Sequence record: PZ338878.1
Direction: 5' to 3' (one strand)
Source of the DNA: a phage
Length of the DNA: 64,000 nt
The translations under genes were made by a program, and so were the position numbers. Position 1 is the stretch's first letter. Each line of letters starts with the position of its first letter. Below are positions 29,639-43,504 of the stretch, piece after piece. The notes under the pieces were generated by a model, which did no database searches, was not told the origin of the DNA, and was given only the letters and a program-made list of their open reading frames with translations.

Positions 29639-30067
29639 TTATTCTCCAAATCGAAAATCGTCAATATCATCAAACCATACACAATGGCGAGTCCTTTCTT
29701 TTTCTGTTGCAGACATTGTTTCAACAGCTTTAGGACTAAGCACAACAGGAATGTAACGAACAGGTCGTTCATAATAGTAGCCATACTTTTCTGTATTAGC
29801 TGCCTCAAAGACTTTACGGCGTTCTTCAAGATCTTCTATGGTGAATCCTACCATATAACCATCATGTTTGCTACCCCATCCTTCCTCACTTTCAACAATC
29901 GGGATATAAAAGCCGTTACGCGTCCCTGACGCTGGTTTTTCTTGAGCCTGAAGGCAAGCCTCCCATCCTGCTTTAAAGACGTTATAGAGCGATTTACGCA
30001 CGTTATGAGTGCCGCTTTCGCTTGCTGGATAGATTTCATTAAACTTGTCTTGGATTTGTTGTGTCAT
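29639..30067 (-). CDS. hypothetical protein (142 aa)
   Basis: ORF track; AAGGGGCGGG upstream. Confidence 0.4.
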   Translation of the reverse strand: MTQQIQDKFNEIYPASESGTHNVRKSLYNVFKAGWEACLQAQEKPASGTRNGFYIPIVESEEGWGSKHDGYMVGFTIEDLEERRKVFEAANTEKYGYYYERPVRYIPVVLSPKAVETMSATEKERTRHCVWFDDIDDFRFGE

Positions 30068-30210
30068 ACCCGCCCCTTAGTGATTATTTGACCAGCTAAA
30101 CAAATAGCTTGTAGTACAATAAAGAAGTAGCCTAATTTTACACTACCCAATACCCAGAATGCAATGTTTGCAAACAAACAAAAAGCAATATTAAGTCTAA
30201 AGAATAACAT
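30064..30210 (-). CDS. small membrane protein (48 aa)
   Basis: Manual translation MLFFRLNIAFCLFANIAFWVLGSVKLGYFF...; stop overlaps the downstream ATG. Confidence 0.3.
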   Translation of the reverse strand: MLFFRLNIAFCLFANIAFWVLGSVKLGYFFIVLQAICLAGQIITKGRV

Positions 30211-30411
30211 TTAATCCCCTTCATATTTAGGTAAAGGCATATATGCCACAATAGGAGGGTAATCAAAGTGAAAATGATGGTTCACCACAATAATCTTACC
30301 AGACATACTTTTATGCACTTCACAATACCCTTTTCCACCATCTTCCATTACCACCACATACTCACCTAGTGGGATATCGTATGGATCTTCTACTTTTACC
30401 CATTCTGTCAT
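30211..30411 (-). CDS. hypothetical protein (66 aa)
   Basis: Trimmed in frame to ATG 30411 (MTEWVKV), preceded by GAGGAG. Confidence 0.4.
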   Translation of the reverse strand: MTEWVKVEDPYDIPLGEYVVVMEDGGKGYCEVHKSMSGKIIVVNHHFHFDYPPIVAYMPLPKYEGD

Positions 30412-30575
30412 TTTGTAAACTCCTCGTAGTAAGGTAAAGCCTTGATCAGTTGTTCTGAAGTGCCATTTTGCACCCACGTAACACCATTGTCAACAGAAAC
30501 ATACCCTTTTTTGTCAATAAATTTACGCAGACAGCCAGTGAACTTATTTTTGTAGATAACCATCTTTACTCCTTG

Positions 30576-30929
30576 TTACATCCACAGGTTATGAAAATAC
30601 TTAGCAAATAAAATGCGACCTTCTAAACGATCTTGCCGCTGTTTTTCATTAACTTCTTCTGGTGGAGTTGAGTCCTTAAAAGAAGACTCCATTTTTTCAA
30701 GAATTTCTAACCAGTGTTCTGCTGCTCGTTCTTCCATATAAGGTAGATAGTCACCTTTAGCGTGTGGGTACATCCGACGAAGTAACCCACTAGGAATTTT
30801 AACATTGTTTGTGGCTATCACTTTTGCACGATACGCAGAAAGTGCATTGTAGATCAGTTTACTTAGTGTCACATCCAGATCAAGAAGATCACTCTCTTCA
30901 AATTGAATTTCATCGTGTACAATTTTCAT
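30576..30929 (-). CDS. hypothetical protein (117 aa)
   Basis: ORF track; no motif. Confidence 0.4.
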   Translation of the reverse strand: MKIVHDEIQFEESDLLDLDVTLSKLIYNALSAYRAKVIATNNVKIPSGLLRRMYPHAKGDYLPYMEERAAEHWLEILEKMESSFKDSTPPEEVNEKQRQDRLEGRILFAKYFHNLWM

Positions 30930-31213
30930 CGTGCCTTCTCCCGATCTGCATCTAATTTCAACAAGAAAGCTGTATACTCTTCCGAACCTTGGTGTAAAAA
31001 CATGTGATAAGAGCTTACCAGTTTCTTCGTTGTCGTATAACGTTCCATTTCCCCAACAACACCTCCACCTAGTGTGTAGAGCACAATACCTTCAACTCCA
31101 ACATAGTTTACTACTTCAACCAAGTCTGTGTTATCCCAATAGTAGTTAGGTGACACAATAAGATCGCCCACTGCCAGTTTAATGTTTGCTACTTCGTCTT
31201 GTGAATAATACAT
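30926..31213 (-). CDS. hypothetical protein (95 aa)
   Basis: ORF track; no motif. Confidence 0.4.
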   Translation of the reverse strand: MYYSQDEVANIKLAVGDLIVSPNYYWDNTDLVEVVNYVGVEGIVLYTLGGGVVGEMERYTTTKKLVSSYHMFLHQGSEEYTAFLLKLDADREKAR

Positions 31214-31225
31214 TTGGTTCTCCTC

Positions 31226-31519
31226 TCACATTAAGACACGTTTTGTGTTGATGGGTGCATTATCAAACATGTTAAGAACATTATCAAGCAGTTTTACTAA
31301 TTCATTTGTAATTTGTTCCCTTGAACGGGAGGAAGTGAGCACTTTGCTTTCACCAACAATATGCATAACTTTTATAGGAGCGTCTAAAATGATGTTGTGC
31401 TGATGATCCTCTTCAAAAGAAGCCAACCATTTCTCATTGTTACCGTGCAAGGCTACAATCACACCAAAACCGTTAATTGTTTCAGAAATATTCTTAGTTG
31501 CTAAAGTAATGTTCATCAT
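31226..31519 (-). CDS. hypothetical protein (97 aa)
   Basis: ORF track; first gene of the leftward operon. Confidence 0.4.
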   Translation of the reverse strand: MMNITLATKNISETINGFGVIVALHGNNEKWLASFEEDHQHNIILDAPIKVMHIVGESKVLTSSRSREQITNELVKLLDNVLNMFDNAPINTKRVLM

Positions 31520-31575
31520 CTACCTCTTTTGTTACGATACACACAGAGTACCAGAAACTAATTTCAGATCAAGTA

Positions 31576-31603
31576 TTGACATACTGTTTTATTGTGCTAA
31601 TCT
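31576..31603 (+). promoter_or_regulatory. sigma70-like promoter for rightward operon
   Basis: TTGACA, about 16 nt spacer, TAATCT, about 30 nt before the SD of the gene at 31636; sits in the divergent intergenic region. Confidence 0.45.
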
Positions 31604-31635
31604 TAATGCATACACAAATGAGAGGAGATAAACGA

Positions 31636-32187
31636 ATGCAAAACACCGATCTGACTTGGGTAGAAGCCAAAGAAGCAATGTTAAAAGGCAAACGTGTTAA
31701 ACATAAATACTTTTGCGAAGGGGAATGGTTTGAAATGCGTAACCGATCCCTTGTAGACGAAAAAGGAAATAACATGGAACAATGGTTCAAAAATGAAATT
31801 TGGCAGGGAACAGGTTGGTCTATAGTTGAAGATCAGCCTAGCTCAAGCGCACTGTTTAGCCCTATTATGTATCGCGTCATCGGTGCTTTAGTTGTTGATC
31901 ACGGAATTGCAGTGGAAAAAGAATGCTGGGAAGAGGTATCTTTTTTCAACCTGGCTTCTTATGCAAAAAGCCATATGCACTTGTTTGAAGAAGGTGATGA
32001 ATTTGTTCTTCGTATGCGATATGGCAAAGAATTCAGATTACCACTTGATAATGATGTAGACACTGTTGTAAAATGGTTAGCAGAGCATTATGCTTACGAT
32101 GCAATTTGTGGTCGCAGCTTCGGCAACGAACGCTGGGACATGATTTGTGAAAAATATGATTTTGAGCCGGAATACGGAGTTTTATAA
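31636..32187 (+). CDS. hypothetical protein (183 aa)
   Basis: Trimmed in frame to ATG 31636 (MQNTDL, GAGAGGAG upstream). Confidence 0.45.
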   Translation: MQNTDLTWVEAKEAMLKGKRVKHKYFCEGEWFEMRNRSLVDEKGNNMEQWFKNEIWQGTGWSIVEDQPSSSALFSPIMYRVIGALVVDHGIAVEKECWEEVSFFNLASYAKSHMHLFEEGDEFVLRMRYGKEFRLPLDNDVDTVVKWLAEHYAYDAICGRSFGNERWDMICEKYDFEPEYGVL

Positions 32188-32438
32188 TGTTAAGTATCAA
32201 ACCTAAAATGATAACAGCAGATGAAGCAGACTTTATTTTCAAATGTGGACGTGTATGGAGAGAATTCACAAAAGGGAATGAAGTGGTTGTTGTTGTCGAA
32301 CACAAGATATCTATCCAGGATCTGTTTGGACAATATGTTGATGTTATTAAATTAGGTATTGACAAGGGTTTAGTTGAGGTGTTAACATTAGATCAAGTTG
32401 AAGCAGAGCACCTCGATAAAGTGGTGGTTGAATTTTAA
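32187..32438 (+). CDS. hypothetical protein (83 aa)
   Basis: ORF track; no motif. Confidence 0.4.
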   Translation: MLSIKPKMITADEADFIFKCGRVWREFTKGNEVVVVVEHKISIQDLFGQYVDVIKLGIDKGLVEVLTLDQVEAEHLDKVVVEF

Positions 32439-32458
32439 AATACAGACGGGAGAAAGGT

Positions 32459-32632
32459 ATGAGTTTCTTTGTTACAGTATTTATGGCTATCTGGATTGTA
32501 GTCTCACTCGTTCTTTTCCTGGTGGGTTGTCTGGAAGAGATTAAGAAAGCGGTTATTTGCGGTTTCTTTGGTTTTATTATCTCTCCTGCCTGGATGTGGT
32601 TCTTCATTATGATTGGTTTCCTTAAAAGGTAA
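32459..32632 (+). CDS. small membrane protein (57 aa)
   Basis: Manual translation MSFFVTVFMAIWIVVSLVLFLVGCLEE...; GGGAGAAAGG upstream. Confidence 0.35.
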   Translation: MSFFVTVFMAIWIVVSLVLFLVGCLEEIKKAVICGFFGFIISPAWMWFFIMIGFLKR

Positions 32633-32646
32633 GTGAGGAATAAAGA

Positions 32647-33084
32647 ATGAGTAAAACAAACGCAATCGCAGATAAAGCAACGGATGTACTTCTGAACATG
32701 GTTAACGTCACTATTCAAACAATGAGTGATGTTGTGGAGTTTGGAAAACAACAAATTCCAGAAGTAATCCATCAATTATTAGTGTGGAAAGCAGTATCCG
32801 CAGGTTTATGGCAACTTTTTAGTATTTGCTTTATGCTTATTACTTTTATTGCTGTGCGGAACATCGTAAAAGCAATTAAAGATAAAGAATGCCTGTGGTC
32901 ACGAGATCGTTATGGTGAAGTATCTGCTTTACCTATTGTTGGTCTTGTTGTCTGTGCTTTCTTTTTCTTTTTAGGGTTTGTTATTTTCTTTTCGAATTTT
33001 GATTGGCTAAAAATCATTATTGCACCAAAAGTGTATCTGATTGAATTTGCTGCTGATTTAATTCGTTCATCTCAACAAAAATAA
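32647..33084 (+). CDS. membrane protein (145 aa)
   Basis: ORF track; several hydrophobic segments. Confidence 0.45.
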   Translation: MSKTNAIADKATDVLLNMVNVTIQTMSDVVEFGKQQIPEVIHQLLVWKAVSAGLWQLFSICFMLITFIAVRNIVKAIKDKECLWSRDRYGEVSALPIVGLVVCAFFFFLGFVIFFSNFDWLKIIIAPKVYLIEFAADLIRSSQQK

Positions 33085-33095
33085 AAGGGGTTAAA

Positions 33096-34223
33096 ATGAA
33101 ATACACGATTTATGGTGATATTGTAAGTGTAAATAAAGATATGGGCGTGGAATCTAACTACCTTCCACCTGGATTCTATACTGTTAGTCGTGATCCCCTT
33201 GGCAATTACTTTTTAAGCCGTGGTAATCTAACAGGTGTACCGGATGTTCTGTATGGTGAAACAGAAAAACGAGCAAATCACGTTATTCGTACATTCCATC
33301 GCCGTAGTGCACAAGGTAAAAACACAGGCTTGCTTCTGACAGGAACTAAGGGCAGTGGTAAAACTATGTTAGCCAAACTCATTAGTCGTGACCTTGTAGA
33401 AGAAGGTATTCCAACTATTATGGTTACTCAAGCCTACAGCGATGCTAATTTCATTGAACTTATTAGCAAGATCACCGACAAAGCAGTGATTATTTTTGAC
33501 GAGTTTGATAAAGTGTATGAGAAGAAACAAGATCAAGAAGCACTTCTCACTTTGTTAGATGGTACTGGCAGTGGTAATAAACTGTTTATTCTGACTAAAA
33601 ACAGTGGTTTTATCTCTGAATTCTTTTTAAATCGTCCTAGTCGTGTGTTTTATAATTTTAATTATGATAAAATCTCACTAGAAACTATGATTGACTACTT
33701 AGATAAAAACCTGGATAACAAAGCACACTTTGATAATTTCCAAAGACTTTGGGATGTAAGTTTAGAGTTGTCCTTTGATGTGATCCAAGGTATAGTAGAA
33801 GAACTTAATTTCTACCCTGATTTATCCTTTAAAGAATGCATCTCTATGATGGGCGTTTCTTTAGGTGGTGGTAATAAATGGGATATCAGCAGCGTTGTTA
33901 TTAATGGAAAACTTCAGAAAGTTAGCTGGGTATCTAGTTGGCATAACTTCACACCTGCAATCTTTTTAGGTGGTTCGTGCACACTAGACGTGTACTTGTC
34001 ATCTCCAAGTGATGCAGACTCTAAAGAAGCCCTTGCTAATAGCTCTTACGTGGTTTTTGATGATGAAGGAGATGCTCGAATTCCATTGAATGCGACAAAA
34101 ATGAAAGCAGATCTTATTACAGGCGGTAAAATCGTTGTGTTTAGTGACGATCCAGAAGATTCTTTCCGTATTGTTCTGGAACCAACTATCACCAATGGTG
34201 CAACTTTGGCAAGTGTGTTTTAA
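33096..34223 (+). CDS. P-loop ATPase (AAA-like), paralog of 16919..18079
   Basis: 375 aa; Walker A GTKGSGKT, Walker B VIIFDEFDK, LLTLLDG. Confidence 0.6.
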   Translation: MKYTIYGDIVSVNKDMGVESNYLPPGFYTVSRDPLGNYFLSRGNLTGVPDVLYGETEKRANHVIRTFHRRSAQGKNTGLLLTGTKGSGKTMLAKLISRDLVEEGIPTIMVTQAYSDANFIELISKITDKAVIIFDEFDKVYEKKQDQEALLTLLDGTGSGNKLFILTKNSGFISEFFLNRPSRVFYNFNYDKISLETMIDYLDKNLDNKAHFDNFQRLWDVSLELSFDVIQGIVEELNFYPDLSFKECISMMGVSLGGGNKWDISSVVINGKLQKVSWVSSWHNFTPAIFLGGSCTLDVYLSSPSDADSKEALANSSYVVFDDEGDARIPLNATKMKADLITGGKIVVFSDDPEDSFRIVLEPTITNGATLASVF

Positions 34224-34240
34224 GTAAGCTAGCAAATAAA

Positions 34241-34264
34241 AACCCGCTCCGGCGGGTTTTCTTG
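34241..34264 (+). terminator. intrinsic terminator
   Basis: acccgc-tccg-gcgggt hairpin followed by TTTTCTTG; near-identical copy at 60040-60066. Confidence 0.65.
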
Positions 34265-34297
34265 TATTGATGCCAGATTTAATAAGAGGAGTAATAG

Positions 34298-35695
34298 ATG
34301 ACAGCACCAAAATCATGGGAACAATATAAAGAAGAATTAACACCCCTTGCTAAAAATCACAATATTCAAATCCTGGGTTATGTTGGGGAATGGAAAGGGA
34401 GCAAGACTAAACTTAAACTATCTTGCCCTGATCATGGAGAGTGGGAAAGTACCGTAATCACTAACTTTAAAACTAGAGGCGGTAAATGTTGCCCCGATTG
34501 CAATGGTCATAGAAAAGTAACAGAAGAAAAGGAATGTATTTCCCTTGTTGATGTTGCTAAAGAAAGAGGGTTTACTTTTATAGGTCTTGCCGAGGAGTGG
34601 CGAGGTGTACGAACAAAAATTCGCATAATTTGCCCTAAACATGGAGAGTGGAACACCACAAATATTATTAGTTTTAGGAATGGACATGGTTGTCCGACAT
34701 GTGCAAGTAATAAGCCGTTAACATGGGAAACAGAATTACCGATCTTGGAAGAGATAGCACAGAAGAAGGGGTATCAAGTGTTAGGGTACGTTGGAGAATG
34801 GAAAAGAAATAAAACAAAACTTGATTTGTTGTGTCATTGTGGTTATAAATGGGATACTACAAGTATTAACAGTTTTAAACGTGGTAGTGGTTGTCCTTTA
34901 TGTGGGTATAAGAATACAGGTAAGTCACAAACAATATCCGACGATCAACATATTGCAGATTTCTTTTCTACTGGTGTCTTCCCTGAAGGCACTATCTTCA
35001 CTAACACAGGAGCACGGGGGAAAGGATGTGGGCATATTATCTGGATGGTTGAATGTCCTGTTTGCTCTCATGATGAATATGTTCAAGCAGGTGTTTGCAA
35101 TGGTAAATTTTACTCTAAAGGATATAACCTTAAACGAGGACACATGCCGTGTCGTTGTGGAAACTATCATTATACAGAAGACCAGATCACCTACAAAGTG
35201 AGAAAGGAAGTAGAGAGTAAAGGGTATATTTGGGTAGGATGGATCAGTAAACCTAGTGCAAAAGGCAAGTTTAAATATTGGTGCAATAAACACGGGGAAC
35301 AAATTGGAAATGCTGATAGTTTGATACATAGGGGAGCTGGGTGTCCACAGTGTGCTGGTCATAGTCAACAGCAATTATATATTAATATTGTTAAAGATAA
35401 TGATATTATAGTTGCTCTTAAGTTTGGTATAGCTAAAGATAGCGATAGACGATTAAACCGTCAAAATAACCATAATATGTTTTTTATGGAGCGTATTTGT
35501 TTATATGATTTTAGCACAGTGAAACAATGTAAGGCTGCTGAAAGAGCTATAAAGAAAAAATTAAAAACTGGTATTTTAACGGAAAGAGAGTTGAAAGACG
35601 GTTATACAGAAACAGTAAGTGTTTCTGATTTGGAAAATCTTCAAAAAATTATTACACAATATGGTGGCAAGTTAGTATACAGTAAGGAGGTGTAA
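34298..35695 (+). CDS. multi-zinc-ribbon protein with C-terminal GIY-YIG/T5orf172-like region (putative nuclease-like)
   Basis: 465 aa; at least four tandem modules of the form GEW...CP.HGEW..T.I..F..G.GCP.C; C-terminal LYINIVKDNDIIVALKFGIAKDSDRRLNRQNNH. Confidence 0.4.
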   Translation: MTAPKSWEQYKEELTPLAKNHNIQILGYVGEWKGSKTKLKLSCPDHGEWESTVITNFKTRGGKCCPDCNGHRKVTEEKECISLVDVAKERGFTFIGLAEEWRGVRTKIRIICPKHGEWNTTNIISFRNGHGCPTCASNKPLTWETELPILEEIAQKKGYQVLGYVGEWKRNKTKLDLLCHCGYKWDTTSINSFKRGSGCPLCGYKNTGKSQTISDDQHIADFFSTGVFPEGTIFTNTGARGKGCGHIIWMVECPVCSHDEYVQAGVCNGKFYSKGYNLKRGHMPCRCGNYHYTEDQITYKVRKEVESKGYIWVGWISKPSAKGKFKYWCNKHGEQIGNADSLIHRGAGCPQCAGHSQQQLYINIVKDNDIIVALKFGIAKDSDRRLNRQNNHNMFFMERICLYDFSTVKQCKAAERAIKKKLKTGILTERELKDGYTETVSVSDLENLQKIITQYGGKLVYSKEV

Positions 35696-36247
35696 ATGCG
35701 GATTACTGATAAGTATGTGTTCTTCTTCTCGGCAAAAGATGAATTTAGCAACTGGTATCTATCATCTTTTATTGAACCTTTAGCTCCCAAGTATAATAAT
35801 TCTATTACAAGTTCTGTTGAATTTACTTGTGTGGAACAATATATGATGTGGAGAAAAGCATGTTTGTTTTATGATTACAACATTGCATCTTCTATTTTAA
35901 CCGGAGATCTAAGATATACAGGAGAAAAAGAACAGGCATATTATAAGCGACTAGGTAGATTAGTTAAAGATTACGATGAAGCTACTTGGACTTCTTTACG
36001 GGAGAAGATTGTCAAGCGTGGTTTGTATCTTAAATACACACAAAATGAAGATCTCAAAAATAAACTTATCGCTTACGCAGATAAGGAGTTCGTAGAGGCA
36101 AGCCCTTATGATTCTATTTATGGTATCAAAATGGGGATGTGGGATCGTGATGTTGAAAACAAGGATCGTTGGAAAGGACAAAATCTTTTAGGAAAATGGC
36201 ATACAGACCTTGCTGTTTATCTAAAAACACAATCTGATATTTCCTGA
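35696..36247 (+). CDS. NADAR (YbiA-like) domain protein
   Basis: 183 aa; FFFSAKDEFSNWYLSSF, EQYMMWRKA, VEASPYDSIYGIKMG, WKGQNLLGKW follow the NADAR/YbiA motif order. Confidence 0.7.
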   Translation: MRITDKYVFFFSAKDEFSNWYLSSFIEPLAPKYNNSITSSVEFTCVEQYMMWRKACLFYDYNIASSILTGDLRYTGEKEQAYYKRLGRLVKDYDEATWTSLREKIVKRGLYLKYTQNEDLKNKLIAYADKEFVEASPYDSIYGIKMGMWDRDVENKDRWKGQNLLGKWHTDLAVYLKTQSDIS

Positions 36248-36465
36248 TATTTTGAAAATTTTTATTTTTATAAAAAGGGGTGTGGGTTTCATGTACGGAA
36301 ATCCACCCTCTGAATAATATATCCAGAGTAAATATTATTCTGTACTCTGTTAATAAAGTATTTAATTTGTTTGTTGGACTATGGTATCTGATCTTTAAAA
36401 GACATACTATCTCTTAACTACTACTTATAACAGAACAGTAAAATCATTTTTATAAAAAGGACAAA

Positions 36466-36665
36466 ATTATTTAAAGTTTTTACAGATTTTTGGCTACAAA
36501 TTTTGAAAATGAAAAGTTCAAGTTTGGTCAAAATTATTTAAAGTTTTTGTATGTATTTCTATCCAGATTTTGAAAATGAAAACTTCAATTTTTTAAAAAT
36601 TCCCCAGTTTATTTAAAGTTTTTTTGCCTTTTTCCGTAGAAAAATCAAAAATGAAAAGTTCAATT
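36466..36665 (+). repeat. three tandem direct repeats of about 67-73 bp
   Basis: Each unit has ATTATTTAAAGTTTTT ... TTTGAAAATGAAAAGTTCAA; units start near 36466, 36533 and 36605. Confidence 0.7.
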
Positions 36666-36686
36666 TCGTGTTTTTATAGGTGTGTT

Positions 36687-36799
36687 AATGAGAATCATTT
36701 TCGTTTGTAAATGAGAATCATTATCATTTAACTATGTAAGTGATAATCATTCTCAGTAAGAGAATGAGAATCATTAGCAAATGAGAATTTTTCTCATTT
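36687..36799 (+). promoter_or_regulatory. cluster of five Fur-box-like palindromes (AATGAGAATCATT core)
   Basis: Copies at 36687-36699, 36710-36722, about 36741-36755 (GTGATAATCATTCTC), 36763-36775, and AATGAGAAtttTTCTCATT at 36779-36799. Confidence 0.5.
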
Positions 36800-37039
36800 A
36801 CAGAATAACGCGCAGGGGCGGTGTTTGTCTCGCGCTCCCGTGTCCCCTCGCCATACAATAAGAATAGCATAACCAACAACAAAAGCAAGCGATTATTTTT
36901 ATCTTTACATTTCTTTACAAATTTATTTTAGACGAGCTACCGGCGATCAACCTTCCAACCAGGGCCGCCTGGTATGTTAGCCCCGCCTTTACGCCGTGGG
37001 GGTGGCGTTTCCTCTTCTGTATGTAAAACAGTATAAGCC

Positions 37040-37085
37040 CGATCCCTGGGCTTGTCAATATTATTTTTTGTTTTCTTGCCAGGAT
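37040..37085 (+). terminator. possible bidirectional terminator-like hairpin
   Basis: aagccc-gatccct-gggctt followed by a T-rich run; lies just past the stop of the minus-strand ORF 37061..37327. Confidence 0.3.
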
Positions 37086-37327
37086 AGGACACCTAACCAA
37101 AAATACATGTCGCCCCGCGCCCCTGGCGGGATCTTGCTTTCCCCGCCGCCACTGCAAGCCCATAAATAACCGTCAGCGAACGGATCAAAGTGATCTATCT
37201 CTTCCACCTTATGATCGCCCAGGTTGAGAACGGTTTCAACCTTTAAGCCCGTTGCGCTTGCTACCTGGTGCACCGTGCCGCCTTGCCAGCCCAATGATTG
37301 CATGAGATGTAAAGGAGTATTTGTCAT
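37061..37327 (-). CDS. hypothetical protein (88 aa) in GC-rich island
   Basis: ORF track; SD GAAAGGG; GC-rich codons (CTG, GGC, CAG) unlike the rest of the window. Confidence 0.35.
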   Translation of the reverse strand: MTNTPLHLMQSLGWQGGTVHQVASATGLKVETVLNLGDHKVEEIDHFDPFADGYLWACSGGGESKIPPGARGDMYFWLGVLSWQENKK

Positions 37328-37438
37328 GGTATCGCCCTTTCTTTGATGTGCGCCCTGGTTGGCGCGGTAGAAAGATAATAGCCGTTTCTTTTATAGATAG
37401 CAAGCAAAAAAGAAATGAAAAAAAGATTAAAAAAACGG

Positions 37439-37499
37439 TTGACGTTCCTCACCTGGTAGCGTAGTATTCATCTTGTCGAGGGGCGGCAATAGTGCCGCT
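37439..37499 (+). promoter_or_regulatory. sigma70-like promoter + 5-prime UTR stem-loop (variant)
   Basis: TTGACG, 17 nt, TAGTAT, then hairpin gcggca-at-ag-tgccgc at about 37482-37499, then SD and ATG at 37523. Confidence 0.5.
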
Positions 37500-37522
37500 C
37501 ATAACAGAAGAGAGAAATAATC

Positions 37523-37795
37523 ATGGCATCATATAGCGCATCAATGATCGTAATGGGTATCACTGGTAAACCTATGCGCGGTGGCGGATCTTTCGCTAAC
37601 ATCAACATTGACGGGCGTTTATCCCTGGACGCAGCGATCACAGTGGCACGGGAAACATTTAAAAAAGAATGTAATTTCAATAAACAAGATTATCTCGGTT
37701 TTGCTATTGAAAAAACCGCGCGCTTTGTGGATTATAAAAGCCCGAAAATGATCGACACTACACTAAAAGCGCAAGATGTAGCGTTTTTGCTTTAA
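37523..37795 (+). CDS. hypothetical protein (90 aa)
   Basis: ORF track; promoter and hairpin upstream. Confidence 0.5.
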   Translation: MASYSASMIVMGITGKPMRGGGSFANINIDGRLSLDAAITVARETFKKECNFNKQDYLGFAIEKTARFVDYKSPKMIDTTLKAQDVAFLL

Positions 37796-37798
37796 GGT

Positions 37799-37860
37799 TT
37801 GACACTGAAAAATAATTGGGTAATATATACGACATAAGGCGGGGAAATGGTTTCCCCGCC
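37799..37860 (+). promoter_or_regulatory. sigma70-like promoter + conserved 5-prime UTR stem-loop
   Basis: TTGACA, 17 nt, AATATA, then GGCGGGGAAA-tgg-TTTCCCCGCC (10-bp stem) at 37838-37860. Confidence 0.6.
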
Positions 37861-37882
37861 AAATCAAAGAAAGGGTAATGCA

Positions 37883-38245
37883 ATGAGCAAGCAAATCAAT
37901 ACTATCATGTTTAATCTGGTATCTTTCCGCGATGACGTGAAAAATCTTTCGCGTGATGCAGTGGATGCACGGATCGAAAGCTATCGCACACAGATCGCAA
38001 CGTTACCGCTGAAACGTGATCAACATGCCGCTAATATGATGCTTGATGCTATGATTAAAAAGATGATTCAATGTGATCTTACCCTGGCTTATGAATATGC
38101 TGGCGATCTCTTTGTAACATACAGCAAGCCCGTACCAGGCATGAGCACCACGGAAGAATTGCATGCCTTAAATCTGCGACAAGATGCATGGGATAACATG
38201 CGCCGTGTTATGGTATGGGTAGAAAGCGGTAAAATTTACGAATAA
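37883..38245 (+). CDS. hypothetical protein (120 aa)
   Basis: Trimmed in frame to ATG 37883 (MSKQIN); the track start lies inside the hairpin loop. Confidence 0.5.
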   Translation: MSKQINTIMFNLVSFRDDVKNLSRDAVDARIESYRTQIATLPLKRDQHAANMMLDAMIKKMIQCDLTLAYEYAGDLFVTYSKPVPGMSTTEELHALNLRQDAWDNMRRVMVWVESGKIYE

Positions 38246-38251
38246 AAACGG

Positions 38252-38305
38252 TTGACATTGCACTAAAACCTGATAAGCTATCTTAAAGCGGGAATTGTTC
38301 CCGCT
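38252..38305 (+). promoter_or_regulatory. sigma70-like promoter + 5-prime UTR stem-loop
   Basis: TTGACA, 16 nt, TAAGCT, then agcggga-attgt-tcccgct at 38287-38305. Confidence 0.55.
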
Positions 38306-38323
38306 TATATAGGATAAAACTTT

Positions 38324-38470
38324 ATGAAACAATATGTAATGAGTATTCATACCAAAAACGGCGCTACTGTTACGACTCCGGCACGGTTTGCACTTGTAAA
38401 CCGTTGCAAGAGACTAAAACGAGAGCTAAAAAATAACCGTGCAACGGGCTTTAAACGCTGGGGAGGATAA
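38324..38470 (+). CDS. small basic protein (48 aa)
   Basis: Manual translation MKQYVMSIHTKNGATVTTPARFALVNRCKRLKRELKNNR... Confidence 0.35.
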   Translation: MKQYVMSIHTKNGATVTTPARFALVNRCKRLKRELKNNRATGFKRWGG

Positions 38471-38472
38471 TC

Positions 38473-38733
38473 TTGTTTTTTCTAAAAGTTTTTGATAATG
38501 TGATCGCTTTTGAACATGCTACAACGTTCGACCTGGCGAGATACGCTATCAGGTTTAAAGATAATGTTTATCCCCGTGCTGGCGGCGGTTACACTATTTT
38601 TAATCATCGCAACGCGCAACTGACTGATGTAACTAATCCAGATCCTGGAGTGTATCGGATAGGCTGGCTACCGTCAAAAGACGCTGCAAGCATGTTTAAG
38701 GTATGTAAACTACTAACAGAAGAGGCGAACTAA
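38473..38733 (+). CDS. hypothetical protein (86 aa), TTG start
   Basis: ORF track; GGGAGGA 5 nt upstream of the TTG. Confidence 0.4.
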   Translation: MFFLKVFDNVIAFEHATTFDLARYAIRFKDNVYPRAGGGYTIFNHRNAQLTDVTNPDPGVYRIGWLPSKDAASMFKVCKLLTEEAN

Positions 38734-38734
38734 C

Positions 38735-39289
38735 ATGGGGCGTGAATATGTGATCCAGTCCTGGGTAAAGCATGATGTAAATGATCCGCGCATAATACCA
38801 GATGACATGATCGATCACATGGTAGGGTATAGCGGGGAGCAGATAGGAAATCGAGCGGCAAAGAGCAACGGCAACACCAGGACGCGATCCGTTCGCCCTG
38901 GATGGCTGGCGAATGGTAACGCTGACATTGCAAGCGCCGCAGATCCAAGCGATGACGCTAAAAATAATCCCTTATACAACATTGATCCGGCTTTTAAGGT
39001 ATTGGAAGAGTATCCCGCTAAATTAGCCGCACTAGATAAGGCATACGAAGAAAAGCGCATGGCCTGGACTGTATACAACACCGCTAAAATGGTGCTAGAT
39101 GCAAAACTAATTAAAGCCCAGGAGAAGATCAATAAACTTGTTACCATAGCGCAAGAGGAAGACCAGGGCGACCAGGAGGAAGAGGAAGAAATCATGCCTA
39201 CTCTGGAAGAGGAAGAGATCCAGCCATACATGCCGACGGAAGAGGAAAAAAGACAAGCCTTAAAAAATTATGAAAATTGCATTGTGTAA
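38735..39289 (+). CDS. hypothetical protein (184 aa) with acidic Glu-rich tail
   Basis: ORF track; SD AGAAGAGG. Confidence 0.5.
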   Translation: MGREYVIQSWVKHDVNDPRIIPDDMIDHMVGYSGEQIGNRAAKSNGNTRTRSVRPGWLANGNADIASAADPSDDAKNNPLYNIDPAFKVLEEYPAKLAALDKAYEEKRMAWTVYNTAKMVLDAKLIKAQEKINKLVTIAQEEDQGDQEEEEEIMPTLEEEEIQPYMPTEEEKRQALKNYENCIV

Positions 39290-39292
39290 GGG

Positions 39293-39321
39293 TTGACATA
39301 TGCAAACAAGCCCCGTAATAT
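39293..39321 (+). promoter_or_regulatory. sigma70-like promoter
   Basis: TTGACA, 17 nt, TAATAT. Confidence 0.45.
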
Positions 39322-39369
39322 GTACCACATAGAGCGGGGCAACTTCTCAAAGGTGAAATAAAAAATCAG

Positions 39370-39397
39370 TTGACACCTGAAATCAGTAAGCTATAAT
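39370..39397 (+). promoter_or_regulatory. sigma70-like promoter (near-consensus)
   Basis: TTGACA, 16 nt, TATAAT, upstream of the ATG at 39435. Confidence 0.6.
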
Positions 39398-39434
39398 GCT
39401 TATATAGATTGAAACATTACTAAGGAATAAAAGC

Positions 39435-39614
39435 ATGGCTATTATTGCAAAAACTGAGATCGTAGGTTTAGATTCTATCCTCCTGGCATATGAGGAAGCT
39501 ATAGAAATGTATGTGGTTTCCTATGGTGATTATATCCGTGAATATAATTCTATTGATCTAGCTTTTGAATGCTATATTCGCCAGGTAAATAAAGCATACG
39601 ATGATTATCGTTAA
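39435..39614 (+). CDS. hypothetical protein (59 aa)
   Basis: Manual translation MAIIAKTEIVGLDSILLAYEEAIEMYVVSYGDYIREYNS...; SD AAGGAA. Confidence 0.4.
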   Translation: MAIIAKTEIVGLDSILLAYEEAIEMYVVSYGDYIREYNSIDLAFECYIRQVNKAYDDYR

Positions 39615-39633
39615 AAGTTTTAGTCTTGTGCTA

Positions 39634-39663
39634 TTGACAACGAACGATAGTACAAGCATAATA
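39634..39663 (+). promoter_or_regulatory. sigma70-like promoter
   Basis: TTGACA, 17 nt, CATAAT; no GC hairpin downstream. Confidence 0.45.
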
Positions 39664-39709
39664 ACTTTTATCGGGAACACTCCTAACTAATCAAAAGAGA
39701 TTAAAGATT

Positions 39710-40075
39710 ATGGCTAAAAATATCAATGTTTCTGCTTATGCTACCCTGGCTAACACTGCTAAAATTGAACTATCCAGCATTGAAGCGGTACATATTAGCG
39801 CCCGTCGCTGGTTTCAAAAGTCTTATGGTAATACTTATTTCTCTTTGATCGTTGACGTTGAGATCGGCGGTAAACTGATTGAAGTCGTTAACGTTCCGTT
39901 TCAATATGGTTATGGTGATCATTTTGATACCGTTGCCCTGGAAGAGTTTAGCAAGGTTATCAACCTGGAAGGTAAAGAGTTTTCAAATTATGCCTACCTT
40001 TCCCGTTTTTGCCGTGATAATGGGATCGCTGTATACAGTCATGCAAGCGATGTTAAACGCAAAAAAGATTTATAA
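39710..40075 (+). CDS. hypothetical protein (121 aa)
   Basis: ORF track. Confidence 0.5.
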   Translation: MAKNINVSAYATLANTAKIELSSIEAVHISARRWFQKSYGNTYFSLIVDVEIGGKLIEVVNVPFQYGYGDHFDTVALEEFSKVINLEGKEFSNYAYLSRFCRDNGIAVYSHASDVKRKKDL

Positions 40076-40080
40076 AAGTA

Positions 40081-40142
40081 TTGACAGCACGAATAAAAAG
40101 AGTAAAATGTTTCATATCAGGACGGGGGAATGGTTCCCCGCC
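40081..40142 (+). promoter_or_regulatory. sigma70-like promoter + 5-prime UTR stem-loop
   Basis: TTGACA, 16 nt, TAAAAT, then gacgggggaa-tgg-ttccccgcc at 40121-40142. Confidence 0.55.
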
Positions 40143-40161
40143 TATAACTAGGTATAATAAA

Positions 40162-40392
40162 ATGGCTAATATGTATATGACCGAAGTTAAAACCGTAAAA
40201 GATACTACTACCAATAAAACTACTTACTTACAGCGGATCTGCGGTGTATGGCAACGTATTAGTAAAGCAAAGTATTATAAATTAACATCATATGCTAATC
40301 GTTCGGATTCATTCCGTACTGAAATAAAAGGTAATAAAGTACACCAATACGGCACTTATTATTATTATAGCCTAGACGCGATTGCAATCTAA
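40162..40392 (+). CDS. hypothetical protein (76 aa)
   Basis: Trimmed in frame to ATG 40162 (MANMYMTEVK); the track start lies upstream of the promoter -10. Confidence 0.45.
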   Translation: MANMYMTEVKTVKDTTTNKTTYLQRICGVWQRISKAKYYKLTSYANRSDSFRTEIKGNKVHQYGTYYYYSLDAIAI

Positions 40393-40411
40393 GCATATTT
40401 TTAAAAAGCAC

Positions 40412-40470
40412 TTGCAAACTAGGTTTAAAGGCGTATAATGTTTTGCATAGAGAGCGGGAATAGTTCCCGC
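40412..40470 (+). promoter_or_regulatory. sigma70-like promoter + 5-prime UTR stem-loop
   Basis: TTGCAA, 16 nt, TATAAT, then gcgggaa-tag-ttcccgc at 40454-40470. Confidence 0.6.
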
Positions 40471-40494
40471 CTCACTGAAAAAGAGATTAACATC

Positions 40495-40734
40495 ATGGCT
40501 AAATCTAAAATGTACAACGGTCACAAAAACAAAACTCATTGGAATGTAAGCCTTTGGATTAATAACGATCCAGGTTTTTATAATATGGCAAAAGAATTTA
40601 TAGCCGTGAACAACAATAAAGATAACGCCGCGCGTGAAATGATGGCACTACTTAACGAAATGGGCCAAAATACTACGCCAGATGGCTATAAATTCAGTAA
40701 AACCAGTATCCGCGCCGCTATGGTAGGAATGTAA
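40495..40734 (+). CDS. hypothetical protein (79 aa)
   Basis: Trimmed in frame to ATG 40495 (MAKSKMYNG). Confidence 0.45.
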   Translation: MAKSKMYNGHKNKTHWNVSLWINNDPGFYNMAKEFIAVNNNKDNAAREMMALLNEMGQNTTPDGYKFSKTSIRAAMVGM

Positions 40735-40743
40735 TAAAAACAG

Positions 40744-40803
40744 TTGACAACGTTTTTTAATCTGATAAGATGTATCACATAGGGCGGGAAATGGTTTCCC
40801 GCC
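40744..40803 (+). promoter_or_regulatory. sigma70-like promoter + conserved 5-prime UTR stem-loop
   Basis: TTGACA, 16 nt, TAAGAT, then GGCGGGAAA-tgg-TTTCCCGCC at 40783-40803. Confidence 0.6.
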
Positions 40804-40825
40804 AAATCAAAGAAAGGTTAACATT

Positions 40826-41053
40826 ATGGCTATCGTTATTGTTCGCGTATCCGGAACGGTTGGAATCTCCCAGGTAGTAGCAGTTATCACAGAAAAGAAA
40901 GGGGATGATCTTCACTCCTCCTTGAATAGCTGGGCGGTCGCTAACTTTGGGCAATGGTCGAGCGTTGAGTACATCGAATCCTACCAGGTGCCAACGATTA
41001 GCCTAACCGATCTAAATGTTGATCGCTTGTTGTGCCTGGATCAATTAAACTAA
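40826..41053 (+). CDS. hypothetical protein (75 aa)
   Basis: ORF track; UTR between hairpin and ATG nearly identical to that of the gene at 37883. Confidence 0.45.
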   Translation: MAIVIVRVSGTVGISQVVAVITEKKGDDLHSSLNSWAVANFGQWSSVEYIESYQVPTISLTDLNVDRLLCLDQLN

Positions 41054-41061
41054 AAATAATA

Positions 41062-41119
41062 TTGACAAGATAACTAAAATCAGTAAAATGTAATGCATAG
41101 GGCGGCAATAGTGCCGCCC
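41062..41119 (+). promoter_or_regulatory. sigma70-like promoter + 5-prime UTR stem-loop
   Basis: TTGACA, 16 nt, TAAAAT, then gggcggca-atag-tgccgccc at 41100-41119. Confidence 0.6.
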
Positions 41120-41140
41120 CTAGTGAGAGAGATTATCAAA

Positions 41141-41356
41141 ATGGCTAATATCCGCACACTGTTAAAAAATGCAAGTCAAGTTTTATTTTCAGATGACGAG
41201 TATTTCAACAAAGACATTACAGGCGTGAAAAATTTAAAAGACGTGAAGGATGTTATCGGTATCCGTGGATCTTTACGTAAAGGTGACATATACGGTAACA
41301 AGGTGCAATATAAATTGTCAAAAGATTATGATTTTACTTTGACAATTATTTCATAA
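41141..41356 (+). CDS. hypothetical protein (71 aa)
   Basis: Trimmed in frame to ATG 41141 (MANIRTLL). Confidence 0.45.
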   Translation: MANIRTLLKNASQVLFSDDEYFNKDITGVKNLKDVKDVIGIRGSLRKGDIYGNKVQYKLSKDYDFTLTIIS

Positions 41357-41362
41357 AACTAC

Positions 41363-41423
41363 TTGCAAACCTGGTAAAATAAAGTAAACTATATTCATTA
41401 AGGCGGTGGAATAGCCCACCGCC
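41363..41423 (+). promoter_or_regulatory. sigma70-like promoter + 5-prime UTR stem-loop
   Basis: TTGCAA, 16 nt, TAAACT, then ggcggtgg-aatag-cccaccgcc at 41402-41423. Confidence 0.55.
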
Positions 41424-41446
41424 TAACAAAGAGAAGAGGAAACATC

Positions 41447-41617
41447 ATGATCACTTTCGCCACCCGTGAAGCCGCTCGCAACGTTGCACGTAAAGTTAAC
41501 GCCGCCAACCTGGGCGCTACGCTTAAAGCCCCGGTAAAAGATGAATCAGGAAAATGGATCTTTCCTGGTCTGCGTCACGCTGATAAGCTGGGAACATTAA
41601 CGTTAAAAAACAAATAA
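41447..41617 (+). CDS. hypothetical protein (56 aa)
   Basis: Manual translation MITFATREAARNVARKVNAANLGATLKAPVKDESGKW...; SD AGAGGAAA. Confidence 0.4.
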   Translation: MITFATREAARNVARKVNAANLGATLKAPVKDESGKWIFPGLRHADKLGTLTLKNK

Positions 41618-41623
41618 TATCCG

Positions 41624-41682
41624 TTGACAGTAGCATCATTTATAAGTAAAGTAACAACAACGGCGGGAAATGGTTTCCCGCC
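41624..41682 (+). promoter_or_regulatory. sigma70-like promoter + conserved 5-prime UTR stem-loop
   Basis: TTGACA, 17 nt, TAAAGT, then GGCGGGAAA-tgg-TTTCCCGCC at 41662-41682. Confidence 0.55.
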
Positions 41683-41702
41683 ATCAATAAAGAGATAAGA
41701 TT

Positions 41703-42062
41703 ATGAAATCAGTAAAAGCAATTAAAACTTACATTGTGTCGGCTATTTCTTTTGATGGTACTACAACCGAAAAAGAAAAGATCACCGAACTGATGCGCCG
41801 TTTTAACTCTGAATACTGGTATCCCGATAATCAAAAACGTTACAATCATAACATGACCAAGGCGATAGCCTCATGGTTACAAGGTTTACCGTCAGAAGTC
41901 AATATTGCTTTTGATTATAATGAGATCGATCACTTGTTAATTGAATGGAAGTGCATAAAAGAAACAAGCAAAGAAACAACCGTTACCCGTGAGCGGGAAA
42001 ATTATTGGTTATATATTGCAAGCATGATCGTAATCCTGGCAAAACAGCATAACGTGGCGTAA
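41703..42062 (+). CDS. hypothetical protein (119 aa)
   Basis: ORF track. Confidence 0.5.
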   Translation: MKSVKAIKTYIVSAISFDGTTTEKEKITELMRRFNSEYWYPDNQKRYNHNMTKAIASWLQGLPSEVNIAFDYNEIDHLLIEWKCIKETSKETTVTRERENYWLYIASMIVILAKQHNVA

Positions 42063-42076
42063 TTAAGAGGAAAAAC

Positions 42077-42214
42077 ATGAACGCATCACAGCAGATCGAA
42101 AAATTCAACCGCAGCAAGGCGCGTAAAAATTGGAACGAAGAGATCACCAAAAAAGGCGATAAGCGGAACAAAACAAAAAGAGATCGCAGTACAAAAAGAC
42201 ACTGGAACGAATAA
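42077..42214 (+). CDS. small basic protein (45 aa)
   Basis: Manual translation MNASQQIEKFNRSKARKNWNEEITKKGDKRNKTKRDR...; SD AAGAGGAAAAA. Confidence 0.35.
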   Translation: MNASQQIEKFNRSKARKNWNEEITKKGDKRNKTKRDRSTKRHWNE

Positions 42215-42218
42215 CAAA

Positions 42219-42243
42219 AAGGGCGCAATAAGCGCCCTTTTAG
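42219..42243 (+). terminator. intrinsic terminator
   Basis: agggcgc-aataa-gcgccct hairpin followed by TTTTA. Confidence 0.55.
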
Positions 42244-42332
42244 CTTATATAGAGGCTTGTTACCCATAGGCAATGGTAACGCCAGGGCAAGCCTATAAAT
42301 CAACGTTAGACAGCTTTACAGGAGCTTTAAAA

Positions 42333-42515
42333 ATGAAATTAAACGAAATAAGCAAGGCACTAGCCCAGGGTCAAAGGTTATGCGCCCGATATCGTGATCA
42401 ATATGGCTTCATGACTAGCGGCGTGATCCTGGGGATTGAAGGTAATAAAATTTTTATTGACACGTTGAAAAACGTTGTATATAGTGACAATATAATCTCA
42501 ATAAAACATATATGA
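42333..42515 (+). CDS. hypothetical protein (60 aa)
   Basis: Trimmed in frame to ATG 42333 (MKLNEISK, AGGAG upstream). Confidence 0.4.
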   Translation: MKLNEISKALAQGQRLCARYRDQYGFMTSGVILGIEGNKIFIDTLKNVVYSDNIISIKHI

Positions 42516-42523
42516 GGCAAGAA

Positions 42524-42925
42524 ATGAAAAAATTATTGATCGCTGGTTTAATCTCTTTTGGCATGGTTGGAACATCTAGCGCGGCGATATCCTCCACAGT
42601 AGCAGAATTAAGCGCCGTTGATGCAATGGAAAACGTCATGATCATTAATAACGCGATCCCCGATGAAATCATGGAGGATTCTCACATGATCGCTTATGGT
42701 GCTGTTACACAATTAACGGCAAAAATAGATAAATCTATTGTTAATGGCTTAAATGAAGATGTACCATGTGAAATTATTACCAGTGTGCTAACGACTCAAA
42801 ATTTTACGCCGTGGCTAAAAAGTATTCAAAAGGTACACAGCACCGCCGCAGATCGTAGCAATGAAAAACTAGTGTCAGCACTTGCAACGTATACCCTAGC
42901 AAAATGCACCGAAATAAAAGATTGA
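42524..42925 (+). CDS. secreted protein (signal peptide)
   Basis: Trimmed in frame to ATG 42524 (MKKLLIAGLISFGMVGTSSAA; GAGG 6 nt upstream). Confidence 0.45.
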   Translation: MKKLLIAGLISFGMVGTSSAAISSTVAELSAVDAMENVMIINNAIPDEIMEDSHMIAYGAVTQLTAKIDKSIVNGLNEDVPCEIITSVLTTQNFTPWLKSIQKVHSTAADRSNEKLVSALATYTLAKCTEIKD

Positions 42926-42972
42926 CAACATAGAAAGCACGTTATAAGATACACACAACAAAGGAGAACTAC

Positions 42973-43275
42973 ATGAACGGCATAGCTAAAACGTTTTTTC
43001 TTTTTTCTGGTGTAAATGATCCATCAATAAAAGTCGATAGCGTAAAAGAAAACAATACTATCACCGCTAAATTGTTTCAAGATGAAACAAATAACGTGCT
43101 AATCATTAATCTTAAAGAAATAACGAAAGGTTATTATACTATTGCTTACCATGCGATCTATCATGCTGGTACTAGCGAGGAAGTGCAAACAAGCAACAAC
43201 GAAAGCGCGGCGCTACCTGGTGATCTGGTGCTGGGCGTTATCAGTTTAATTGTCAATGATTTTTTTAAGGAGTAA
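42973..43275 (+). CDS. hypothetical protein (100 aa)
   Basis: ORF track; SD AAGGAG. Confidence 0.45.
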   Translation: MNGIAKTFFLFSGVNDPSIKVDSVKENNTITAKLFQDETNNVLIINLKEITKGYYTIAYHAIYHAGTSEEVQTSNNESAALPGDLVLGVISLIVNDFFKE

Positions 43276-43279
43276 AACC

Positions 43280-43375
43280 ATGCCCTATTTACATTTATTT
43301 TTCGGGATCTTATTGTCAGGATCTTTTTTCTTCTGTATACTTGTTTCTATTGTAAACCACGTTTTAAGACATTAA
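43280..43375 (+). CDS. small hydrophobic peptide (31 aa)
   Basis: Manual translation MPYLHLFFGILLSGSFFFCILVSIVNHVLRH; AAGGAG upstream. Confidence 0.25.
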   Translation: MPYLHLFFGILLSGSFFFCILVSIVNHVLRH

Positions 43376-43384
43376 GGAAACAGC

Positions 43385-43504
43385 ATGAAAATTATTCCCG
43401 TACAGTATAGCGTAATAAATCCAGCATATGAGGAAGGAAGGAAAACAAGCATGGCTTTATGTTGTATTACTACTATAGCCATGTTATTATATATTGTGTT
43501 TTAA
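43385..43504 (+). CDS. small membrane peptide (39 aa)
   Basis: Manual translation MKIIPVQYSVINPAYEEGRKTSMALCCITTIAMLLYIVF; AAGGAAA upstream. Confidence 0.25.
   Translation: MKIIPVQYSVINPAYEEGRKTSMALCCITTIAMLLYIVF

Follow-up and report, generated by a model that had tools for sequence, protein, structure and literature searches.

NADAR gene and predicted structure of its product

The 64,000-nucleotide stretch of phage DNA from sequence record PZ338878.1, referred to as the window in its full length, contains a gene for a NADAR-family protein at positions 35696–36247, which is the subject of this analysis (Table 1). The start codon of the open reading frame (ORF) is abutted by the TAA stop codon of the upstream gene (35693–35695) and is preceded by a ribosome-binding site. 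The ORF is a real gene that encodes a NADAR-family protein: the Pfam profile NADAR (PF08719, DUF1768) matches with 126.8 bits relative to a gathering score of 35.1 (E = 1.3e-36), the match covers profile positions 9–154 of 163, and the domain begins near residue 6. Two small antisense ORFs within the gene, at 35641–35790 and 35996–36181 of the minus strand, have no support. The protein also matches PHROG 1017, which is labelled "unknown function" (E = 5.8e-50), the candidate-defence model PDC-M42C of PADLOC (118.6 bits), and the NCBIfam model TIGR02464 (110 bits, cut-off 73.7). A total of 532 homologues were found among 5.8 billion proteins, and PF08719 is present in every match listed.

The AlphaFold2 (AF2) model of the protein, built on the alignment of its clade, has a pLDDT of 96.2 and a pTM of 0.91. 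The only significant Foldseek matches in the PDB are the NADAR protein of Phytophthora nicotianae in complex with ADP-ribose (PDB: 8BAU; TM 0.78, E = 3e-9) and Escherichia coli YbiA (PDB: 2B3W; TM 0.64), and all remaining matches have E-values of 2 or more. The Phytophthora protein is also the closest solved structure in a single-sequence search (E = 4e-12). A profile of 50 sequences from the clade scores 122 bits against 8BAU (E = 2e-34) and 62.7 bits against YbiA (E = 3.6e-16), and does not match the DarT1-linked NADAR of G. lovleyi (PDB: 8BAT) at E ≤ 0.01. The preliminary description of this DNA had called the protein YbiA-like, which holds for the shared fold, the conserved glutamate, and the TIGR02464 cut-off; in the narrow sense, the protein is not of the YbiA type, because its profile is much nearer to 8BAU.

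The ADP-ribose in 8BAU is contacted by residues E43, K50, K75, G78, R79, V81, Y84, D86, W89, R93, E125, D130, and W133 (Schuller 2023, PMC11543638). These positions were transferred to the phage protein through a phmmer alignment, with the index in the PDB chain equal to the residue number plus two, as verified for E125, D130, and W133. The corresponding residues are E47, K54, K84, G87, R88, V90, Y93, E95, W98, R102, E134, D139, and Y142. Eleven of the thirteen are identical to those of 8BAU and the other two are conservative replacements (D86 to E95 and W133 to Y142), which bears out the NADAR motif order recognized in the preliminary description. Residues E47, K54, K84, G87, W98, E134, and D139 are invariant across the 50-sequence alignment. 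The Glu and Lys that are seven residues apart in the family correspond to E47 and K54, the acid at the position of E125 is E134, and all three are present in 50/50 homologues. The presumed catalytic acid is the YbiA-type glutamate (E134), and position 132 is occupied by Phe here and by Phe, Leu, Ile, or Met across the clade. By homology to 8BAU, the side chains of K54, R88, W98, and R102 would hold the pyrophosphate of ADP-ribose, and Y93 would stack onto the adenine. Residues E47 and E134 are expected to flank the distal ribose, as judged from 8BAU and from the NADAR of E. coli C7, in which efficient hydrolysis and/or the rescue from DarT1 toxicity is lost when E88, K95, or D171 is mutated (PMC11543638).

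Relationship to AdfN(Bas60) and probable function

The 5-kb stretch around the NADAR gene shares 97.6% identity with Escherichia phage alia and 94–95% with many other Justusliebigvirus genomes, among them that of phage PaulScherrer, and judged by its sequence the window is DNA of a Justusliebigvirus coliphage (Stephanstirmvirinae). In phage PaulScherrer of the same genus, which is Bas60 of the BASEL collection, the gene bas60_0111 encodes a protein of the same length (QXV83846.1) that is identical to the window protein in 180 of 183 residues. The three substitutions (N62/S, A96/D, and R158/C) affect the columns that vary most in the family alignment. Both genes are placed behind an AAA ATPase gene and a CapR-repeat gene and are followed by a gene-poor stretch, and apart from the substitutions they differ in that the upstream CapR gene is six nucleotides shorter in the window. 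The ~70 kb of PaulScherrer annotation inspected contain bas60_0111 as the sole NADAR-type gene, and the related phage genomes listed by tblastn have one NADAR copy each.

The NADAR proteins of Bas60, Bas61, and Bas62, which are distinct from T4 gp30.3, were found by DELTA-BLAST, and the Bas60 protein was named AdfN(Bas60) (Johannesman, Carlson & LeRoux, bioRxiv 2024; Nat Commun 2025, PMC11825919). Expressed from a plasmid, AdfN(Bas60) is reported there to neutralize the toxicity of DarT1 in uninfected E. coli, to give three DarTG1-sensitive phages (RB69, T5, and Bas25) their full titre on a host with DarTG1, and to leave the defence by DarTG2 unaffected. In the tree given in the same paper, it groups with NADARs that belong neither to the YbiA nor to the DarG1 group. 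Our comparisons agree with this placement, as the clade is nearer to 8BAU than to YbiA, does not reach 8BAT, is barely alignable with gp30.3, and has remote bacterial relatives. DarT1 joins the C1'' atom of ADP-ribose to the N2 atom of guanine in DNA, and NADARs hydrolyse this bond (PMC11543638); all four NADAR subtypes tested hydrolyse guanine-linked ADP-ribose in vitro (Cihlova 2024).

Neither domain searches nor the orthologous annotation revealed an ADP-ribosyltransferase or DarT gene among the genes flanking the NADAR gene, which is consistent with an orphan antitoxin. As a stand-alone gene of a lytic phage, it is flanked by the gene of the CapR/T5orf172 protein, that of an AAA ATPase, and small genes annotated as hypothetical. 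Therefore, the product of the gene is very likely a NADAR ADP-ribosylglycohydrolase of the stand-alone kind, similar to an orphan antitoxin, which represents AdfN in Justusliebigvirus and counters the guanine modification by DarT1. In a host with DarTG1, guanines in the single-stranded DNA of the phage would be modified by DarT1 with ADP-ribose at their N2 amino group, and replication would be blocked. The NADAR protein would bind the ADP-ribose moiety and hydrolyse the N-glycosidic bond between the ribose and guanine, so that ADP-ribose would be released, the base restored, and phage replication could proceed. The reversal of guanine ADP-ribosylation and the protection from DarT-type toxins had been proposed in the preliminary description, and the proposal is supported, because rescue from DarT1 toxicity is reported for a 98%-identical protein. 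According to the published account, the experiments suggested there have largely been performed on this orthologue. We infer that the allele in the window behaves like AdfN(Bas60) and that its native phage requires the gene.

Several points weigh against this assignment. The functional evidence stems from the 98%-identical orthologue and not from the window allele, and bas60_0111 was equated with AdfN(Bas60) through the phage and its NADAR content, not through the accession list of the paper. Furthermore, the evidence was obtained by ectopic expression, and the main text of the paper describes neither a deletion in Bas60 nor an assay of a purified enzyme of this clade (PMC11825919). YbiA and T4 gp30.3, which are active in vitro, fail to rescue cells from DarT1 toxicity (Cihlova 2024); NADARs with activity in vitro can thus fail in vivo, and the fold alone does not guarantee activity. 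In addition, the score for TIGR02464, a model named "riboflavin biosynthesis intermediates N-glycosidase", is above the curated cut-off. Finally, relatives of the gene occur in large phage-like contigs near NAD-salvage genes, which fits an action on soluble ADP-ribose derivatives.

The match to TIGR02464, the presence of the YbiA-type E134, and the annotations of the relatives are in keeping with a housekeeping N-glycosidase of the YbiA type that acts on reactive intermediates of the riboflavin pathway, as public annotations imply, and such a role of YbiA is cited in the literature (Frelin 2015). However, TIGR02464 is a domain-level model that also captures NADARs outside the YbiA group, and AdfN(Bas60) lies outside this group in the published tree (PMC11825919). 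The orthologue neutralizes DarT1, which E. coli YbiA does not, and the ~70 kb of annotation inspected in the orthologous genome contain no riboflavin (rib) genes. A function in riboflavin metabolism is very improbable in view of the phenotype of the orthologue, the missing rib genes, and the fact that YbiA is the more distant relative.

Alternatively, the protein could bind or inhibit a defence protein or ADP-ribose and need no catalysis for this, since another phage NADAR, reportedly T5 U56, is described as acting non-enzymatically against Retron-Eco1. The residues tied to catalysis or ligand binding are conserved in the window protein, seven of them invariantly in the clade, and point to selection on catalysis. 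Additionally, the orthologue is reported to rescue phages specifically from the DNA-modifying toxin and not from DarTG2. We consider a non-catalytic action hardly credible.

A broader question is whether DarT1-modified DNA is the natural substrate. NADARs, including T4 gp30.3 and YbiA, reverse the ADP-ribosylation of guanosine in RNA (PMC11833690), and some of them, the YbiA type included, reverse that of cytidine (PMC12945103). The enzyme might therefore act on ADP-ribosylated RNA guanosine or cytidine, on the products of other toxins (YarT-like, pierisin/ScARP-like, or secreted), or on soluble ADP-ribose derivatives from NAD-consuming defences, and the reversal of DarT1 modification would be one facet of a general clean-up enzyme. 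Homologues that adjoin an NMNAT-like gene or lie near a NAMPT-like gene in phage-like contigs are compatible with this, as is the spread of the family over many hosts, with homologues at E ≤ 1e-5 in 719 phage records, mostly of large myoviruses of Staphylococcus, Escherichia, Listeria, Enterococcus, and Bacillus. In contrast, the effect of the orthologue on DarTG1 is reported to be direct and strong (PMC11825919), and the NADAR gene of this phage is not located beside NAD-salvage genes. A broader or different natural substrate is unlikely; it would supplement the action against DarT1 and does not exclude it.

The biology of NADAR proteins that counter DarT1 is already known from the 98%-identical protein, and the preliminary description made a correct functional call from raw sequence. 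The public records of the gene family could be renamed accordingly. In related phages, its members are called "hypothetical protein", "putative YbiA-like N-glycosidase", "GTP cyclohydrolase II", "YbiA-like protein", or "NADAR family protein", and one of the first three names is used in most of the public records; bas60_0111 has the second of these names, and the orthologues in alia, phi92 (gp223), and Paula are hypothetical. The best matches in bacterial genomes are 35–43% identical and come from Myxococcota, Clostridia, Paenibacillus, and Bacteroidota. A search for a bacterial donor found no enterobacterial copy among the best 80 genome matches, and the one Archangium copy inspected has no ADP-ribosyltransferase neighbour.

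Gene cluster, macro-domain protein, and gene-poor DNA

The NADAR gene is the last of seven co-directional genes (31636–36247), which diverge from a long minus-strand block of replication and nucleotide-metabolism genes. Its position at the end of an operon, as previously described, stands with respect to the order of the genes; however, a terminator-like hairpin between the first five and the last two genes may split the cluster in two. A candidate promoter of the cluster is located in the divergent intergenic region (Table 1). Past the NADAR stop codon, the segment 36245–36330 folds with −22.1 kcal/mol (z = −2.57), and none of 200 shuffled sequences is as stable. The hairpin in this segment was missed by the terminator scan, and as it lacks a U-run it is not a canonical intrinsic terminator.

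Table 1. Features of the window discussed in the text, with the evidence for each.
Feature	Position	Strand	Evidence
NADAR-domain gene, 183 amino acids, ATG to TGA	35696–36247	+	ORF list, Pfam NADAR, AF2 model, identity to bas60_0111
Ribosome-binding site GGAGG, 5 nucleotides upstream of the NADAR ATG	35686–35690	+	direct sequence reading
Candidate sigma-70 promoter of the cluster, TTGACA / 16 nucleotides / TGcTAATCT, divergent intergenic region	31574–31601	+	sequence reading; inferred, −10 hexamer below scan threshold
Terminator-like hairpin AAAACCCGCTCCGGCGGGTTTT between AAA ATPase gene and CapR gene	34239–34260	+	terminator scan; annotated bidirectional terminator in phage Paula
Gene for 465-amino-acid protein, five CapR zinc-ribbon repeats and C-terminal T5orf172	34298–35695	+	Pfam, PHROG
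GC-rich hairpin at the cluster end, 29 nucleotides past the NADAR stop	36276–36310	+	RNA fold
Three ~70-nucleotide direct repeats, spaced 67–75 nucleotides, in DNA of 25% GC, each with ATTATTTAAAGTTTTT and TTTTGAAAATGAAAAGTTCAA	36446–36666		"repeat_region" in phage alia
Fur-box-like palindrome clusters in gene-poor DNA	36684–36800 and 47676–48880		motif counts
Conserved non-coding core, ~125 nucleotides, in GC-rich segment	36902–37027 (wider element ~36800–37060)		BLAST, ten-phage alignment
Conserved promoter, TTGACA / 17 nucleotides / TATACT	TTGACA 37058–37053, TATACT ending 37030	−	11/12 to consensus
ORF of 88 amino acids in a patch of 51% GC (window 37%)	37061–37327	−	hypothetical in PaulScherrer, alia, and phi92 (gp224)
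Macro-domain protein	14295–15011, alternative starts 15029 or 15077	−	Pfam Macro, 30.9 bits vs 22

The protein encoded directly upstream of the NADAR gene matches the Pfam profile CapR with 161 bits in five stretches, T5orf172 with 21.4 bits, and the endonuclease family PHROG 681 with an E-value of 2e-92; it is labelled "endonuclease" in PHROGs and RefSeq. The order of the ATPase, CapR, and NADAR genes is kept in the Phapecoctavirus Ro121lw, where the CapR protein is 35% and the NADAR protein 56% identical and two small genes are inserted between them; Klebsiella phage FBKp34 does not share this order. The simple reading that the CapR/T5orf172 gene is a homing endonuclease of recent insertion with the NADAR gene as its cargo was rejected, because the 35%-identical copy occupies the same place in another genus and is separated from the NADAR gene by the two extra genes.

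Early expression of the NADAR cluster is plausible, and no transcriptome or timing data for Stephanstirmvirinae were found in the literature. Positions 37400–47500 contain a long run of small plus-strand genes, each of which is located behind a near-consensus sigma-70 promoter. There are ~18 plus-strand promoter sites with scores of at least 10/12 in this region, mostly with a perfect TTGACA, and several GC-rich hairpins are placed just downstream of the promoters. Judged by these signals, the region looks like an early region of the host polymerase, which would start only past the NADAR cluster. GC skew was considered as a marker of a replication origin near 36–37 kb; its minimum falls at the switch of gene orientation near 31.5 kb and thus gives no information about the origin. 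A scan of the whole window identified no tRNA genes.

The second gene of interest for ADP-ribose chemistry encodes the macro-domain protein, which the preliminary description had named TARG1-like without stating that it is on the minus strand. The name is supported by its matches: in the PDB, the protein is similar to SCO6735 (PDB: 5e3b; E = 5e-15) and human TARG1 (E = 4e-10), the DarG models of PADLOC and NCBIfam score 49 bits over their macro part, and the protein is 30% identical to T4 Tk.4/AdfM (E = 1e-17). The macro domain comprises residues ~85–237 and follows an N-terminal extension of ~84 residues that has no family match. SCO6735 has been reported to cleave thymidine-linked ADP-ribose on DNA (PMC9411070), and the phage protein is a candidate thymine-ADP-ribose hydrolase. 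The macro gene is 21 kb from the NADAR gene and is not linked to it. It is located directly downstream of a gene for a ComF-like phosphoribosyltransferase (PRTase_3, 133 bits) within 14295–15862 of the minus strand and, according to the PaulScherrer annotation, next to a HAD-like gene. Further along the PaulScherrer genome, a sirtuin-family gene is annotated (bas60_0185). Several genes of this genome are therefore related to NAD or ADP-ribose.

In T4, the macro protein Tk.4 is AdfM, a factor against DarTG2 that works alongside AdfN (2025 preprint). The idea that the NADAR and macro proteins of the window form a complementary pair would thus have a direct precedent, by analogy with T4, and the window phage has a macro protein that is 30% identical to AdfM. 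It is possible, if rather doubtful, that the NADAR protein is one arm of a wider kit for the de-ADP-ribosylation of nucleic acids, which would include the DarG/AdfM-like macro protein and possibly the CapR/T5orf172 protein, and the substrates of which would include guanosine in RNA or cytidine ADP-ribosylated by toxins other than DarT1. The biochemistry of the family and the gene content of the phage provide the support for such a kit.

The gene-poor stretch of 1.3 kb past the NADAR gene is more unusual than the gene itself. The three direct repeats at its beginning look like iterons. They are followed by a packed array of palindromes that conform to the 7-1-7 model of the Fur box, with the motif TGAKAATNATTMTCA. 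With one mismatch or fewer, the motif occurs eight times in the window, at positions 36712, 36741, 36765, 36782, 47679, 47737, 48668, and 48863, compared to 0.23 expected occurrences, and all of the sites are in two gene-poor stretches, the second of which is at 47.4–49.2 kb. The 19-mer consensus of Fur with up to three mismatches occurs six times, compared to 0.04 expected. PaulScherrer and alia retain the sites, and boxes that resemble those of Fur occur in Phapecoctavirus Ro121lw as well. Nothing on Fur boxes in this phage group was found in the literature, and one match concerned sitABCD in lambdoid prophages. The palindromes could serve as operators or as a decoy of Fur, or another dimeric regulator could bind them. 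The second stretch also contains 67 N (masked or unassembled) at 48934–49000.

Beyond the palindromes of the first stretch is a non-coding core, the invariant runs of which include CTACCGGCGAT and GTTAGCCCCGC. BLAST finds the core with 84–86% identity in Vequintavirinae that infect Proteus, Klebsiella, Cronobacter, and Pectobacterium; in those that infect Salmonella, E. coli (4MG), and Acinetobacter, the match is longer and 71–77% identical. The proteins of these phages are only ~40–60% identical. Ten phages from Stephanstirmvirinae and Vequintavirinae (phages of Proteus, Salmonella, Cronobacter, Pectobacterium, Klebsiella, and Acinetobacter) were aligned; the core has long invariant runs in this alignment, whereas the NADAR proteins of the same set are ~40–45% identical. 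Eight of the ten have a Fur-like palindrome at a short distance from the core on one side. Two of the eight show only its distal part, and the slices of the other two phages start past the site. The other side of the core is occupied by a minus-strand promoter (TTGACA or TTGCAA, ~17 nucleotides, TATAnT), the GC-rich spacer of which varies.

The core is unannotated in the records inspected except for that of Klebsiella phage K54_rec4, in which a short ORF of a "hypothetical protein" runs across it. A scan of positions 30000–40000 against Rfam returned only a chance miRNA match (E = 0.044), far below the gathering score. RNAalifold identified 0 and 2 compensatory pairs on the two strands of the core, which is too invariant for covariation, and single-sequence folds have z-scores of −0.25 to −2.47. 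Possible identities of the core are a small RNA and a DNA element of the origin type. A small minus-strand ORF is present next to it in the window and at the same position in Ro121lw, Mydo, PVP-SE1, and 4MG; in the window, this ORF has no NCBIfam match and ends at a bidirectional hairpin (37035–37053) that overlaps the conserved minus-strand promoter. The GC-rich patch at 36801–37520 was also considered as captured host DNA, which was rejected, as blastn found no match to it in 5,426 complete E. coli genomes.

Comparison with other NADAR proteins

The window protein and AdfN(T4), which is gp30.3 of phage T4, are both stand-alone phage NADARs, for which the same reaction is proposed and DarTG1 is the defence targeted. 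However, their sequences have no detectable similarity by BLASTP (E = 2.1), and hhalign aligns them with a probability of 11.6%. T4-type NADARs have a histidine in place of the family glutamate, and hhalign pairs E134 of the window protein with His123 of gp30.3. Unlike AdfN(Bas60), AdfN(T4) is reported not to neutralize DarT1 in uninfected cells (Johannesman et al.).

DarG1 and the other DarT1-linked NADARs, such as those of E. coli C7 and G. lovleyi (8BAT), belong to the same superfamily. E88 and K95 of the C7 protein correspond to E47 and K54 of the window protein, and K84 matches C7 K115, the lysine required for rescue from DarT1 (PMC11543638). In contrast to DarG1, the window gene has no adjacent DarT1 gene, and its product lacks the N-terminal extension (183 residues, compared to 229–234). 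The catalytic aspartate of DarG1 (D171 in C7) is located two residues before the position of the family glutamate, whereas the window protein has F132 there and would use E134.

The fold and the conserved glutamate are shared with E. coli YbiA (2B3W, TIGR02464), which is more distant by profile than 8BAU and does not rescue cells from DarT1 (Cihlova 2024). The context of the window gene shows no link to a LexA-controlled or riboflavin operon. The Phytophthora nicotianae protein 8BAU is a eukaryotic protein with a sequence identity of 28%, and the window protein differs from it by an insertion at residues ~26–40 and by another loop after residue 147. Nevertheless, 8BAU is likewise a stand-alone NADAR and the best structural match both by sequence and by fold, and its ADP-ribose contacts are identical or conservatively replaced in the phage protein.

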